IMG/VR virus record: IMGVR_UViG_2531839200_000015
Origin: a virus
Lineage: Duplodnaviria > Heunggongvirae > Uroviricota > Caudoviricetes
DNA length: 4,288 nucleotides
Strand: one strand, 5' to 3'
Part shown: positions 1 to 4,288 of the stretch, in pieces
Numbering within the stretch: position 1 is the first letter of the stretch
How the letters are laid out: each line of letters opens with the position of its first letter
Position numbers and translations under genes: made by a program
The notes under the pieces: generated by a model
Database searches by the model: none
What the model was told of the DNA's origin: nothing
Seen by the model: the letters and a program-made list of their open reading frames with translations, nothing else

Positions 1-370
1 TCATCGGGGTAAAACGGTTTATGACGTGGCTTCCGGCGACGCGTTATTTATTTCTGAACTCGGTCCGTTACCGGAAAATGTTACCTGGTTGTCGCCGGAT
101 GGAGAGTGTCAGAAGTGGAACGGCACATCCTGGGCGAAAGATGCAGAAGCAGAAAAACTGTTTCGGGTACGGGAGGCAGAAGAAACAAAAAACAGCCTGA
201 TGCAGGTAGCCAGTGAGCATATTGCGCCACTTCAGGATGCCGTAGATTTGGATATTGCGACGGAGGAAGAGGCATCGTTACTGGCTGCATGGAAGACATA
301 TCGGGTATTGTTGAATCGTGTTGATACAACAGTAGCAGCGGATGTTGAGTGGCCAGTCGCCCCACAATAA
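1..370 (+). CDS. Phage tail fiber assembly protein (Tfa/gpG family), C-terminal part; 5'-partial, gene begins upstream of the window
   Basis: The frame is open from base 2 ([29 protein letters not shown]...) to the TAA at 368-370. The GTG at 26 reported as start by the ORF track is internal. The C-terminal motif [27 protein letters not shown]....WP is the conserved tail-fiber-assembly chaperone domain found in lambdoid Tfa and P2 gpG proteins (recalled, not searched). GC is about 48%. Confidence 0.88.
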
Positions 371-376
371 AAAGAA

Positions 377-406
377 AAAGCCATCGACAGAAATATCGAT
401 GGCTTT
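377..406 (-). terminator. Rho-independent terminator hairpin between convergent genes, strongest for the minus-strand acetyltransferase
   Basis: Perfect 11-bp stem, AAAGCCATCGA (377-387) pairing with TCGATGGCTTT (396-406), around an 8-nt loop CAGAAATA. On the minus strand the hairpin is followed by UUCUUUUUAUU (complement of 366-376), a classic U-tract. On the plus strand it is followed by AUGUACUCUAUUU, a weaker tract. It sits between the tfa stop (368-370) and the acetyltransferase stop (414-416). Confidence 0.7.
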
Positions 407-413
407 ATGTACT

Positions 414-986
414 CTATTTATACAATACAACACCACTCTTTTTAGTTATATATGTGCAGTTTGATGGTATATCTTTATTTATAAAAGACATTGCACCTAT
501 TTTTACATTATCCCCAATTTTACGTGATAATCCAATGATGCAACAATTAGCTCCGATATCAACGTTACTACCAATTTTTACTCTTGAACTAGGCATATCA
601 CCATCTATCTGTCCAATGGTAGTATTCTGTCGTAATACCAGATTTTCACCCGCATCAACAGCAAAATGAACAACAATTCCAGCATGATGGGGAATTGTCA
701 ACCCTTTTCCAATATTTGCGCCCAATCCTATTTCACAACCAAACTTGTTAATTATTTTACTGTTTAACTTTTTGGCTGCTTTCTTATGTAATTTATTACC
801 ATTAATATACATTTCGTTAGCCAACCGCCACCAGAAAAGGAAATTCCGGTTACGCTGCTTTTTCTCTCTTAAAAGCCTCCAGATATCCATACGTTTCCGC
901 CGAATTACTTCATGTTTCCAGAAGTTTTTTAAATTAGTAGAGTTTCCAAATAAAACAAAGTGAATTGCCATTAAGTAAGATAGCAC
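414..986 (-). CDS. Hexapeptide-repeat (left-handed beta-helix) acetyltransferase, serine acetyltransferase CysE/WcaB-like; AT-rich cargo gene
   Basis: The ORF-track frame is 414..1019. The protein carries tandem hexapeptide repeats (GLGANIGKGLTIPHHAGIVV..., IGQIDGDMP, KIGSNVDIGANCCIIG, KIGDNVKIGAMSFI) preceded by a CysE-like helical region (FLFWWRLANEMY...KFGCEIG). I prefer the GTG at 986-984 as start because AAGGAG (998-993, minus sense) lies 6 nt upstream of it. The track start GTG at 1019 and the ATG at 971 have no Shine-Dalgarno and remain alternatives. GC is about 27-30%, far below the flanks. Confidence 0.82.
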   Translation of the reverse strand: MLSYLMAIHFVLFGNSTNLKNFWKHEVIRRKRMDIWRLLREKKQRNRNFLFWWRLANEMYINGNKLHKKAAKKLNSKIINKFGCEIGLGANIGKGLTIPHHAGIVVHFAVDAGENLVLRQNTTIGQIDGDMPSSRVKIGSNVDIGANCCIIGLSRKIGDNVKIGAMSFINKDIPSNCTYITKKSGVVLYK

Positions 987-1037
987 GATAATCTCCTTAA
1001 TTATTATTTCAGACCACACATGTTATAAGGTTAAGAG

Positions 1038-1066
1038 ATTATAAAATCCTGTTATTTGTTATTCAA
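1038..1066 (-). promoter_or_regulatory. Predicted sigma70 promoter for the acetyltransferase gene
   Basis: Minus-strand reading: TTGAAT (-35, complement of 1061-1066), a 17-nt spacer AACAAATAACAGGATTT, then TATAAT (-10, complement of 1038-1043, perfect consensus). An A/T-rich UP-like tract (AAAATTGTTTT) sits upstream. The predicted transcript start near 1031 leaves a leader of about 45 nt before the SD and GTG at 986. Confidence 0.55.
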
Positions 1067-1099
1067 AAACAATTTTCTGAGAAGGACATACAACAGCAA

Positions 1100-1132
1100 G
1101 TCGCCAGTCACCTTCATCAGGAAATTGGCGAC
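1100..1132 (-). other. Inverted repeat (7-bp stem, 19-nt loop) just downstream of the gpU stop; possible weak terminator or recombination scar
   Basis: GTCGCCA (1100-1106) pairs with TGGCGAC (1126-1132). It is flanked by direct copies of GACATAC (1085-1091 and 1130-1136). On the minus strand the stem is followed by the moderately U-rich CUUGCUGUUGUAUGU. Confidence 0.25.
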
Positions 1133-1142
1133 ATACGTTAAA

Positions 1143-1631
1143 TCAGAGCAGCCCCTTAACTGAGCTGGCCGCGCTATTAAGGGATGATGTCACCTTATCT
1201 TTGAAGCCGGACAGCATATCGCTGAACGATGAGGATTGCAGGCGCTCCCGCAAATCCTCATCACAGCGTTCAAGAGTCAGTGAAAATTCTATCTTTTTCG
1301 CCTTACCGTAGCGATCAAACTCGGAGCGGGTCGTATTCGTTCCGGTCAGGACATACATGCCGTAAATCTGCCCGACGCCATCAATCAAAGGCCAAGGACG
1401 TCCTGTATATGCCTGCGTGGTCAACAACGACAGCGACACTTCGCCACCAGTAATCTCAGGATAAAGAACACCAGAAAGAACGATGCGATCATCACCTGCA
1501 CCGATATACTGCCAGCTTGCTGAACGGTTAACGCGTTCATTTTTCACATGTCGCCAGCTTTTGTTTTGCTGTAACTGCTGATGCGGCAACGTGCGCAGCT
1601 CAAAAACAAACATGCCGTAGATCATCATCAT
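1143..1631 (-). CDS. Phage tail protein, P2 gpU family
   Basis: The ORF-track frame is 1143..1637 (MAMMMIYGMFVFELRTLPHQQLQ...WRH...NSRVNRSA..GAGDD...LSGVLYPEITGG...WPLIDG.G.IYGMYV). The N-terminal MMM-hydrophobic pattern and conserved blocks match P2 gpU as I recall it (MMMVLGLFVF...). It sits directly downstream of the tape measure gene, as in P2 T-U order. The start is probably the second ATG (1631-1629), since GAGGAG (1645-1640, overlapping the gpT stop) is 8 nt upstream of it and only 2 nt upstream of the first ATG at 1637. Confidence 0.8.
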   Translation of the reverse strand: MMMIYGMFVFELRTLPHQQLQQNKSWRHVKNERVNRSASWQYIGAGDDRIVLSGVLYPEITGGEVSLSLLTTQAYTGRPWPLIDGVGQIYGMYVLTGTNTTRSEFDRYGKAKKIEFSLTLERCDEDLRERLQSSSFSDMLSGFKDKVTSSLNSAASSVKGLL

Positions 1632-1643
1632 GGCCATGACTCC

Positions 1644-3954
1644 TCAATCTTTATCGTAAAAACTGCCACGCCTGGCACGGGCGCGCCGTTCCATTTCTGC
1701 CCTGACCATTTCGCCGACCAGTTTCGCCAGTTCGCGGGGATTCTGCGTAACAACGTTATGCAGATGAACATGAATTTCACCGCCAAATCCGGAGGCAACA
1801 GGCTCCCGGTTACGGGAAGTTGCAGGAACTGATGCCACTGGCGATCGTATGGCCTCCACCACCGGGCGGGAGCTGGCCGCAACAACAGGGACCAGCGCCG
1901 GAGGCAGCGGAGCCGGGACCACGGGTGTGATATTAATTGCGGGGGCAGGCTTACTGACCTGCGCAATCTTCCGCTCCTGCCACTCCCCACGAACAGCAAG
2001 TGCGCGGGGCAGGTTCTTAAAGACAATATCGCCGGGGCCAATGCGTTTTTTTGTCTCATCAACCAGCTTACCTGTGTTATCAGCAATTTTGCTGAGTCTG
2101 CGTAGCGTGCCGGTATTGCTGTCTGTGAGAGGTTTGTTGTCTTTGGGTTTATCATCTCCGGTGCCATTGCTATTTCCCGCAGACTTCGGCGGATTGATTT
2201 TCGCAATGTCTCCCTGAAACAGAGCAACCTTGTCCTGAAGAATGGCCGCACGTTGTGCGTCTTCGATTTTCTTGCGCGCCCTTTCCGCTTCATCCGGAAG
2301 CACACCGAGTTTTTCAAGTATCCACGCCAGCGTATCCAGCAACATTTTTGCAGGCGTCAGAACAAGCTGTAACGCACCACCAAGAACGTTACCGAATACC
2401 TCGCCAGCACTGGTACATTTATCCAGCGTTTCCTTGCTGGACTCCATCGGTGACAGCAGCGATTTAAACCAGTTAAACACCTGGCTGATCCCGCTTCCGA
2501 TTACGTCAAAAACAGGGCCAAACCGTTCAAAGGTGTCGCGCAACGGGGTCAGCCTTTCCATAATCCCGCTGAACACCCCGGCAAAGAAAGCCCTGATAGG
2601 ATCCCAGTATTTCCAGATAAGAACGGCAGCTCCGGCAAGCGCAGCCACGATAAGACCAACCGGACTGAACAACGCCCCGATAACGCCTCCCAGTAAAGAA
2701 ACGGAACCCGTCACCATTCCCCATAGCGCAGGTAACACCCTGACGACATTCATTGACCGGGTAAGAATGTCAAAACCAAGACGCAGGGTGGCCAGCTTCC
2801 CGTAAAGCACCCCAATAACCAGCGACAACGAGCCAATCGTTGCAGTCATTGCCAGCAACGCACCGCCTGCTATCAGTAGCTGGCGCGTCAGTACCGGATG
2901 GGCCTGCGCCAGCGAGGTGATTTTTTCAAGCACCCGCGTGAGCCACTGCGTGACAGAACGCAGCGGACCGTCAACCAGATCACTGATGCGAATACGAAGA
3001 CCTTCCCATGCGCTGTCGAGATTTTTCAGGTCCCCATCAAGATTATCAGCCATTACTTTTGCGACGCGATCGGCCTCTCCCCTTGCCCCCTGCAATTCTC
3101 TGGTCAGTTTTTGCAGCTCTCCTGAACCAGCCGCCGCAACAAGCGTCTGCAAACCAACGAACGCCTCTTCTCCGGCGATGTCCTTGAAGAAGGAGACCTG
3201 GTCCACCTGTCCGTATTTTTGTGTCGCCTTATAGAGATCAAGCAGCACATCCTCCATCGGGCGCATTTTGCCTCTGGCGTCAGCAACTGACACCCCCAGC
3301 TCTTTCAGTGCATCAGCCGCAGCTTTTGGCGGTGATGCAAGGCGGGACAGACTTGCGCGCATGGCCGTGCCAGCATCGCTTCCGCGAAGACCATTATTGG
3401 CAAGCATCCCGGCCATGGCCGCCGCTTCTTCAAGACTGATACCAAGTTTTGCGGCAACCGGACCGGTATACTTCATGGTTTCGCCCAGCGCGCGTAAATC
3501 AGTATTGGTCCGGGTAAATGCTGCTGTCAGCGTATCGCCCACCCGGTCCATTTGATCGGCTGTCAGGTTGAACTGTGTGAGGATATTGGAGCCTATATCA
3601 GCCGTCTCGCCGAGTTCGACGCCACCTGCCAGCGCCATATTAAGAACACCGGGCAATGCGGCCTGAATGGCCTGCGGAGTAAAACCAGCCATTGCCAGAA
3701 AGCTCTGCCCACTGGCGGCATCACTCGCAGTAAACTGTGTTTCAGCAAGTTTTAACGCCTGCTCACGCAGCGCCTTAAACTGCGGGCTGTTTTTGTCGAT
3801 TCGCGTCAGTGCCTGAACGCGGGACATCTCTTTGCCGAACCCGATCGCAGGCTGCAAAAAACGCCCGGCAGCATAGCCGCCCGCCGCTGCCGCACCAATT
3901 GCCAGCGCACCACCTGTTTTCAGTTTTCCCGCGGTTTCCTGCGCGTGCGAATAC
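1644..3954 (-). CDS. Phage tail tape measure protein (P2 gpT-like, TP901-type domain), 5' end interrupted by IS insertion; probably a pseudogene or gene fragment
   Basis: A 737-codon ORF (track 1644..3857, with TTG as first possible start) ends in TGA at 1646-1644. It has an N-proximal tape-measure domain (...LGISLEEAAAMAGMLANNGLRGSDAGTAMRASLSRL...), a long central hydrophobic Gly/Ala/Leu-rich segment and a Pro/Val/Ala-rich C-terminal region, all typical of myovirus tape measure proteins. My hand translation shows the frame stays open upstream of 3857, with no ATG/GTG/TTG, through the IS boundary at 3954/3955 and about 30 codons into the IS until a TGA at 4046-4044. So the native start is missing from this side of the IS. 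Confidence 0.88.
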
Positions 3955-4288
3955 TGAACCGCCCCGGAAATCCTGGAGACTAAACTCCCTGAGAAAGAGG
4001 TAAACAGGATGACTAAAAATACTCGTTTTTCCCCCGAGGTCCGTCAACGGGCAGTTCGTATGGTTCTGGAAAGTCAGGATGAATATGACTCACAGTGGGC
4101 GGCAATTTGTTCCATTGCCCCAAAGATTGGCTGTACGCCGGAGACTCTGCGTGTCTGGGTTCGCCAGCATGAGCGGGATACCGGGGGCGGTGATGGTGGG
4201 CTCACCAGCGCTGAACGTCAGCGTCTGAAAGAGCTGGAACGTGAAAATCGTGAACTGCGCCGCAGTAACGATATCCTTCGCCAGGCTT
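3955..4288 (+). mobile_element. IS3-family insertion sequence, left end (IS629/IS1203/IS3411-like); continues beyond the window
   Basis: The terminal sequence TGAACCGCCCCGGAAATCCTGGAGACTAAACTCCCTGAGAAAGAGGTAAACAGG starts at 3955 with the TG dinucleotide typical of IS3-family inverted repeats. It is followed by the OrfA ATG at 4008 with an AAGAGG Shine-Dalgarno (3995-4000). The left-end sequence matches IS629 as I recall it; this was not verified by search. Confidence 0.85.
4008..4288 (+). CDS. IS3-family transposase OrfA (helix-turn-helix and leucine-zipper N-terminal protein), 3'-partial
   Basis: The ATG at 4008 opens [93 protein letters not shown], which runs to the window edge without a stop. 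This is the characteristic IS3-family OrfA: an HTH region followed by a heptad Leu/Arg/Glu-rich zipper. It is absent from the ORF track because it is not closed within the window. Confidence 0.9.

Follow-up and report, generated by a model that had tools for sequence, protein, structure and literature searches.

IS629- and IEE-associated genomic deletions in Escherichia coli O157 were reportedly described by Ooka in 2009 and by Kusumoto in 2011. IS629-driven prophage decay of this kind is already well known, and the element described below is an ordinary IS629/IS1203 copy. IS629 and IEE are reported to make IS-adjacent deletions that can be as short as a few nucleotides or exceed 40 kb, and IEE has microhomology-mediated end-joining activity (PMC9943667). 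In a proposed model of 'sloppy' strand transfer, one IS end is joined into nearby DNA (bioRxiv 10.1101/2023.06.07.543989). Sp13 of strain Sakai is a P2-like, defective prophage in which most morphogenetic genes are missing (Asadulghani 2009, PMC2669165), and the literature found on Sp13 contains general descriptions only.

The window, that is, the whole stretch of 4,288 nucleotides analysed here (IMG/VR record IMGVR_UViG_2531839200_000015), shows the 3' part of a tail fibre assembly gene on the plus strand (1-370; Caudo_TAP), followed on the minus strand by an AT-rich gene encoding a hexapeptide acetyltransferase (414-989), an intact gpU tail gene (1143-1637; PF06995, Phage_P2_GpU, E=1.5e-38) and, with gpU downstream of it, a truncated tail tape measure gene, gpT' (1644-3954). 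The remaining 334 bp (3955-4288, plus strand) are the left quarter of a 1310-bp IS629/IS1203 element of the IS3 family, which the end of the window cuts off. Positions 1-3954 match PV15-279, an E. coli O157:H7 strain, with 100% DNA identity, and Sp13 of Sakai with 99.9%. The window forms the right part of Sp13, a P2-like (peduovirus) prophage of E. coli O157:H7.

The truncated tape measure gene and its prophage

The gpT' frame on the minus strand has its stop at 1644, is open to 3954 and stays open into the IS segment. Inspection of the ORF found no start codon (ATG, GTG or TTG) farther upstream than the TTG at 3857, and both the ORF and its translation bear out a sequence-only reading of the window, which had described a tape measure frame that has no start codon beyond 3857 and runs open into the IS. 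The gpT' product matches PF10145 (E=9e-55, 186 bits) and TIGR01760 (E=4e-84, 282 bits), and is 96% identical to residues 166-935 of the intact 935-aa T protein of phage 500465-2. Therefore, 165 N-terminal codons are missing, in agreement with the claim of the same reading that the gene is without its 5' part. At the DNA level, gpT' shows 100% identity to PV15-279 and 99.9% to ECs_2640 of Sakai. Genes of the tape measure type are expected to lie between gpE/E' and gpU and to encode proteins of about 800-950 aa. The gene of the window shows the features of the TP901/P2 gpT type, with the domain present and gpU directly downstream, here over residues 166-935, and its intact homologues encode 935 aa and have gpE/E' upstream.

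Phage 500465-2 (Peduoviridae, Gemsvirus) and the P88-like Xuanwuvirus phages have a tape measure protein 96% identical to that of the window and DNA 89-96% identical to it, and show the FI-FII-E-E'-T-U block in the same orientation, divergent from D. They differ from the window in being intact phages, with a 935-aa T protein and a 1242-bp D gene, and in containing a DNA invertase and a tail-fibre shufflon in place of the acetyltransferase gene. An IS-driven inversion of the FI-FII-E-T-U block relative to P2 was also considered, and it was rejected because intact phage 500465-2 shows the same order.

The Sakai Sp13 prophage shares with the prophage lineage of the window the site between yecA and leuZ, as well as the gene order tail fibre assembly gene, acetyltransferase gene, U and T. 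It differs in that T is full length but frameshifted at window positions 2489-2490, sheath and tube genes are retained, and the head genes have been removed by another IS-bounded deletion. In contrast, the PV15-279-type prophage, to which the window lineage belongs, retains head and baseplate genes and is without sheath, tube, E and the T N-terminus. In PV15-279 itself, integrase, replication, head, lysis, baseplate and fibre genes are present, the holin gene having an internal stop; the genes for sheath, tube and E/E' are missing, as are the N-terminus of the tape measure and an intact D. Judged by this gene content, the tail module (sheath, tube, E/E', T and D) cannot be functional in this lineage, and the earlier prediction of a nonfunctional tail module agrees with the set of genes missing from PV15-279. 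The setting that it had suggested, a decaying O157 prophage, is likewise correct. The operon upstream of T' and U is missing in PV15-279, and T' and U have lost the promoter of that operon, which lies upstream of the sheath gene. A scan of the minus strand between 3860 and 4288 for a sigma-70-like promoter of T' found none, nor any that reads out of the IS, which, as a consensus scan only, is weak evidence.

The IS629/IS1203 copy

Similarity to the uninterrupted tape measure gene of Sakai Sp13 ends exactly at 3954, and from exactly 3955 onward the window resembles IS629/IS1203 copies, starting with TGAACCGCCCCGG. These two homology limits define a novel joint, TAC/TGA (3952-3957, to which no strand applies), between the last tape measure base and the first IS base. 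The alignment to an uninterrupted homologous prophage that had been proposed as a check thus places the break at 3954/3955, and the IS terminus had been located correctly, at 3955 and beginning with TG.

The 334 bases from 3955 to 4288 have IS matches of 95-100% identity in 3,712 of the 5,426 complete E. coli genomes, and therefore the identity of the IS is not due to chance; the IS3-family, IS629-like element announced from the letters is an IS629/IS1203 copy. The same bases are 98.8-100% identical to thousands of copies, named IS3-like element IS1203 family in RefSeq and IS629 in Sakai. The left terminal inverted repeat, IRL (TGAACCGCCCCGGAAATCCTGGAGA..., 3955-3991, plus strand), was compared with the right end of the PV15-279 copy in reverse complement: the first 13 nt are its reverse complement and the further bases match partly. 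The full copy at the joint in PV15-279 has 1310 bp, TG...CA ends and a right end reading ...CCGGGGCGGTTCA. In the window, orfA begins with an ATG at 4009, 54 nt past the first IS base. The earlier reading had recognised a typical IS3 OrfA here, which holds, and had placed it 53 bp after the IS end, a trivial difference. The 93 visible codons of orfA (4009-4288, plus strand), which encode the helix-turn-helix part of the OrfAB transposase, match PF01527 (HTH_Tnp_1, E=1e-12) and the NCBIfam model transpos_IS3 (NF033516). The full element in PV15-279 and in a related 5.29-Mb contig contains an annotated programmed frameshift and matches to HTH_Tnp_1, HTH_21 and rve.

The element shows the likeness expected of IS629/IS1203 (IS3 family, IS3 group) of E. 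coli O157:H7 and Shigella: the TG start, the IRL and an orfA with HTH_Tnp_1 54 nt from the end, full copies having 1310 bp, a programmed frameshift, the rve domain and 3-bp duplications. Its terminal repeats, orfA/orfB layout and near-identity assign it, at the level of sequence, to the IS3 family (IS629/IS1203), the IRL and the N-terminus of orfA being read in the window and the right end and orfB in PV15-279 and the 5.29-Mb contig. The copy of the window differs from O157 IS629 in a patch of four SNPs (4038, 4047, 4053 and 4054; plus strand), found by position-by-position comparison, with one amino-acid change, I16V. The patch carries the alleles of a sister IS variant that is 96% identical to O157 IS629. 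Only one complete genome matches the 334-bp IS allele of the window exactly. The combination of the joint and this exact allele is found in no complete E. coli genome, the best full-length match having 98.9% identity, and a search of genome contigs for the exact junction with the SNP patch gave 0 matches.

The joint in related O157 genomes

The loci compared are those of PV15-279 (L001), Sakai (L002), F3113 (L005), the 5.29-Mb contig (L007) and PA2 (L012). The T'/IRL joint is identical in two complete chromosomes, PV15-279 and F3113, and in the 5.29-Mb contig; these three loci show 99.9-100% identity to the window, and a draft contig (L010) stops at window position 3952. In the RefSeq annotation, a partial tape measure gene stands beside an IS1203-family transposase at the joint. 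This recurrence bears on whether the joint belongs to a chimeric contig, assembled from short reads through a collapsed IS repeat. Two IS alleles are mixed in the SNP patch at 4038-4054, which a collapsed repeat could bring about, and the window terminates inside the IS. However, the joint is the same in the two RefSeq chromosomes, the 5.29-Mb contig and the end of one draft contig, the excision scars of other strains are consistent with it, and the exact IS allele is present in a complete genome. An assembly artefact is highly improbable, and its rejection rests on the recurrence of the joint in complete assemblies that are independent of one another.

The IS at the joint is full length, 1310 bp, in all three of PV15-279, F3113 and the 5.29-Mb contig. 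Its right end, ...GGGGCGGTTCA, is followed in each by GTTATCGATATT, which is the interior of IS30 (Sakai locus 16614 onward). In these loci the IS has TAC at its left flank and GTT at its right, and therefore there is no target duplication. The left flank corresponds to position 12953 of the Sakai locus and the right flank to 16614, and the 3,660 bp between them (12954-16613) are absent. The missing segment contains tape measure codons 1-165, gpE/E', the tube and sheath genes, the gpD 5' stub and part of IS30. Since the window ends 334 bp into the IS, the sequence past 4288 is deduced from these relatives, which are identical over 1-3954 and have the same joint.

The sequence-only reading had the tape measure gene split by transposition, with the N-terminal piece of gpT beyond the other IS end and a 3-4 bp target duplication (ATAC or TAC). 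In the relatives sharing the joint, neither sign of a simple insertion is seen, the 3-4 bp duplication or flanks that are contiguous in an empty-site homologue: the right IS end adjoins IS30 in PV15-279, F3113 and the 5.29-Mb contig, the flanks are TAC and GTT, and the N-terminal piece is absent from all three. A query for the junction of the IS629 right end, TAC and the tape measure N-terminus (GGGGCGGTTCA-TAC-CGCTCACGCGCC), at a threshold of at least 80% coverage, matched 0 of the 5,426 complete genomes. The outcome that the reading had itself named as refuting, no T N-terminus and no duplication past the IS, is thus what the closest relatives show, the window's own sequence ending at 4288.

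A simple insertion of IS629 in the genome of the window, which would place the N-terminal 165 codons of T and a 3-4 bp duplication about 1 kb past 4288, is accordingly improbable. The right flank lies outside the window, the L010-type contigs (six of the 24 read) stop at the IS and are uninformative, and IS629 with a 3-bp duplication is known in the T gene of strain 1613. But all assemblies that cross the IS at the joint show IS30 or further deletions beyond it, the predicted junction is in none of the complete genomes, and an insertion in T would not explain a right junction that coincides with the insertion site of PA2 in IS30. Strain 1613 serves as a positive control: IS629 has inserted there independently, at window position 2043, neither half of T has been lost, and the element is flanked by a 3-bp ATG/ATG duplication. 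The joint at 3954/3955 does not match, in its sequence, the true simple insertion exemplified by this strain.

A query composed of the IS30 left flank, GTT and the IS629 left end gave a single-piece match of 100% in one complete genome, that of O157 PA2. In the same prophage of PA2, IS30 contains an IS629 of the same orientation; both IS30 halves are kept, and the IS629 is flanked by a perfect GTT/GTT duplication. PA2 and PV15-279 have an identical right junction, and their IS copies agree at 1309 of 1310 positions. Among the best 40 matches listed, this right junction is in a single piece only in PA2, PV15-279 and F3113. Since PA2 shows the same IS629, the same IS30 site, the same orientation and the GTT duplication, IS30 was most likely the transposition target, and the claim that the tape measure gene was split by transposition is not supported.

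The joint was most probably made (with a probability of roughly 0.55) by an IS-associated deletion next to an IS629 sitting in IS30, and not by a simple insertion. In the proposed history, IS30 would first have interrupted the tail gene D, and IS629 would then have transposed into that IS30 with the 3-bp GTT duplication, a state preserved in PA2. In the window lineage, a deletion flush with the IS629 IRL would have removed about 3.66 kb of adjoining DNA, taking the IS30 3' part, the D 5' stub, sheath, tube, gpE/E' and tape measure codons 1-165, and would have fused the IRL to the tape measure interior at 3954/3955. Under such an IRL-flush deletion, the tape measure gene would therefore be truncated by deletion and would not be a transposition target, its N-terminus being probably lost and not displaced. 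As for the chemistry, the IS629 transposase would likely have carried out an aberrant, 'sloppy' strand transfer, or IEE would have assisted an end joining, both processes being described for O157. What the related genomes show by comparison is the structure, the mismatched flanks, the insertion that is intact in PA2 and the nested scars, together with the order of the events.

The PA2 prophage also presents a difficulty. Its Sp13 belongs to the Sakai type: T is frameshifted, and both the left end and the right-hand deletion differ from those of the fuller PV15-279 type, to which the window lineage belongs. The insertion common to both must therefore be ancestral and since lost from most strains, or have passed between lineages, or have arisen more than once at this site. 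This difference in prophage type would be hard to accommodate in a deletion model with a single history. Two further points count against the deletion model: the right flank of the IS lies outside the window, and four clustered positions set this IS apart from those of the reference genomes. Recombination between two IS copies is a possible but rather unlikely origin of the joint. A second IS629, oriented like the copy in IS30, would have entered T at 3954/3955 and duplicated TAC or ATAC, and recombination between the direct repeats would have removed the 3.66 kb and one IS. In that case T would be a true target, yet its N-terminus would still be gone. Such recombination yields exactly the structure seen, with T' on the left, IS30 on the right and mismatched flank triplets; IS629 does enter the T gene, as in strain 1613, and the four SNPs from another IS allele show sequence exchange among IS copies here. 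However, it requires one extra event, the intermediate between the IS right end and the T N-terminus, which would show the junction GGTTCA-TAC-CGCTCACGCG, is in 0 of the 5,426 complete genomes, and other IS-end-flush deletions in the lineage require no second copy. A one-step deletion and a two-copy recombination would give the same sequence product.

The deletion model is also in accord with the other IS-flush deletion and excision scars of the same lineage. The sole correction to the sequence-only reading is causal, in that the IS end is most likely a deletion edge and not an insertion site. If it is a deletion edge, then no N-terminal fragment or target duplication is to be expected past the contig end.

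Scars of further decay and known IS629 deletions

Many draft contigs encode a T' protein of 737 aa. Among the 24 contigs read, 16 are of the L006/L009 type, in which T' extends to about 3951 and is followed by no more of IS629 than its last 30-32 bp; next comes GTTAATCC, the sequence found in PV15-279 from locus position 9015 onward. One contig (L008) shows T' to 3954, T(G) and then GTTAATCC. These scar forms imply, from their sequence, that in a second deletion 1,690 bp were removed flush with the IRR, at a CAGTTA microhomology, and they also imply that the IS itself was lost after this IRR-flush deletion, at 1-2 nt of microhomology. The type of the window could be either that of PV15-279 or the intermediate one, the T N-terminus being absent in both.

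With about even odds, the alleles of this locus in natural O157 isolates form a preserved stepwise series: IS629 in IS30 with GTT (PA2), the 3.66-kb IRL-flush deletion (window, PV15-279 and F3113), the 1.69-kb IRR-flush deletion, and the loss of the IS, leaving an IRR stub of 30-32 bp or the first 1-2 nt. If the series is truly sequential in one lineage, the locus would be a field record of 'sloppy' events of the transposase or IEE, and possibly a fine-scale lineage marker. The joint and the scars derived from it are usable as markers of O157 sublineages. An IS end adjoining a truncated gene is no proof that the IS was inserted into that gene. Beyond annotation, the locus is of little import: it adds to the recorded cases in which IS629 erodes a prophage, by what is most likely an ordinary deletion of the IS629-associated kind.

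Among the closest known systems are the IS629- and IEE-associated deletions of O157 (Calvo 2023, PMC9943667). The locus resembles them in a deletion located exactly at the IS629 end, in flanks without a target duplication, and in related strains that show near-precise excision, with the scar microhomologies AA, G and CAGTTA. It differs from them in that the role of IEE or the transposase is deduced here from footprints. The IS-flush deletions and the microhomology scars, taken as sequence footprints, are consistent with IEE-mediated excision and deletion.

Tape measure gene inactivations and the IS629 joint

Window positions 2489-2490 show TC where Sakai and most O157 genomes show A, a difference that corresponds to a 1-nt deletion, causes a frameshift in the tape measure gene and accounts for the Sakai pseudogene ECs_2640. 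The lineage of the window does not have this frameshift, and in strain 1613 the tape measure gene is interrupted by an IS629 at window position 2043. Since the frameshift is absent from the window lineage, the gene has been knocked out at least three independent times: by the frameshift, by the deletion flush with the IS, and by the IS629 of strain 1613.

In draft O157 genomes of the window lineage, excision scars are found at the joint between the truncated tape measure gene and the IS (9873-9908 in contigs L006 and L009, and about 9902 in contig L008). The scars retain either a stub of 30-32 bp from the right end of IS629 (IRR) or just the first 1-2 nt of the element, and are fused, via CAGTTA microhomology, to DNA lying 1,690 bp rightward. 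These footprints resemble microhomology joining of the type attributed to IEE, the IS-excision enhancer of O157.

The IS copy of the window shows four clustered differences from O157 IS629, at 4038, 4047, 4053 and 4054, one of which produces I16V in OrfA. At all four positions the window has the allele of a 96%-identical sister IS, a partial copy within Sakai Sp13, and its exact 334-bp IS allele is found in only one complete genome, OkiPb01684. The patch (4038-4054) is either a short gene-conversion tract or a short-read consensus derived from two IS types.

Tail fibre assembly and acetyltransferase genes

Rfam IS009 (RF02111), a candidate sRNA family that came out of a screen of E. coli intergenic regions, matches window 135-333 (+) at full length with 191 bits. 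The match falls within an intact Caudo_TAP (tail fibre assembly domain) coding frame, and RF02111 probably models a remnant of a prophage tail fibre assembly gene and not an RNA gene. In the PV15-279-type prophage, tail fibre gene H is separated from the fibre assembly gene by a gene encoding a 300-aa macro-domain protein (L001 941-1843; L004 35227-36129), an unusual cargo there.

The tail fibre assembly gene and the gpU gene converge, and between them, in an AT-rich island of about 380-1140, lies a hexapeptide-repeat acetyltransferase gene (414-989, minus strand, 191 aa); its GC content is 35%, against about 55% for the tail genes. The acetyltransferase gene likewise converges with the tail fibre assembly gene, and a hairpin with a 13-bp stem between the two, AAAGCCATCGA...TCGATGGCTTT (377-406), flanked by A-runs and T-runs, looks like a bidirectional intrinsic terminator. 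The acetyltransferase shows weak similarity to EpsC, CysE and WcaB, below every curated cut-off, and a role in acetylating surface polysaccharide is a guess. Its position looks like a moron slot, because phage 500465-2 has a DNA invertase and a fibre shufflon at the same place.

Orientation of the tail block

The FI-FII-E-E'-T-U block is divergent from gene D and convergent with the fibre genes, both in the intact phage 500465-2 (L011 4467-11309) and in the Sakai Sp13 locus (L002 10143-16195). An O157 rearrangement as the origin of this orientation was rejected, since phage 500465-2 is arranged alike. The divergent block is the natural layout of this peduovirus group, unlike P2, in which FI, FII, E, E', T, U, D and the fibre genes all run in one direction.
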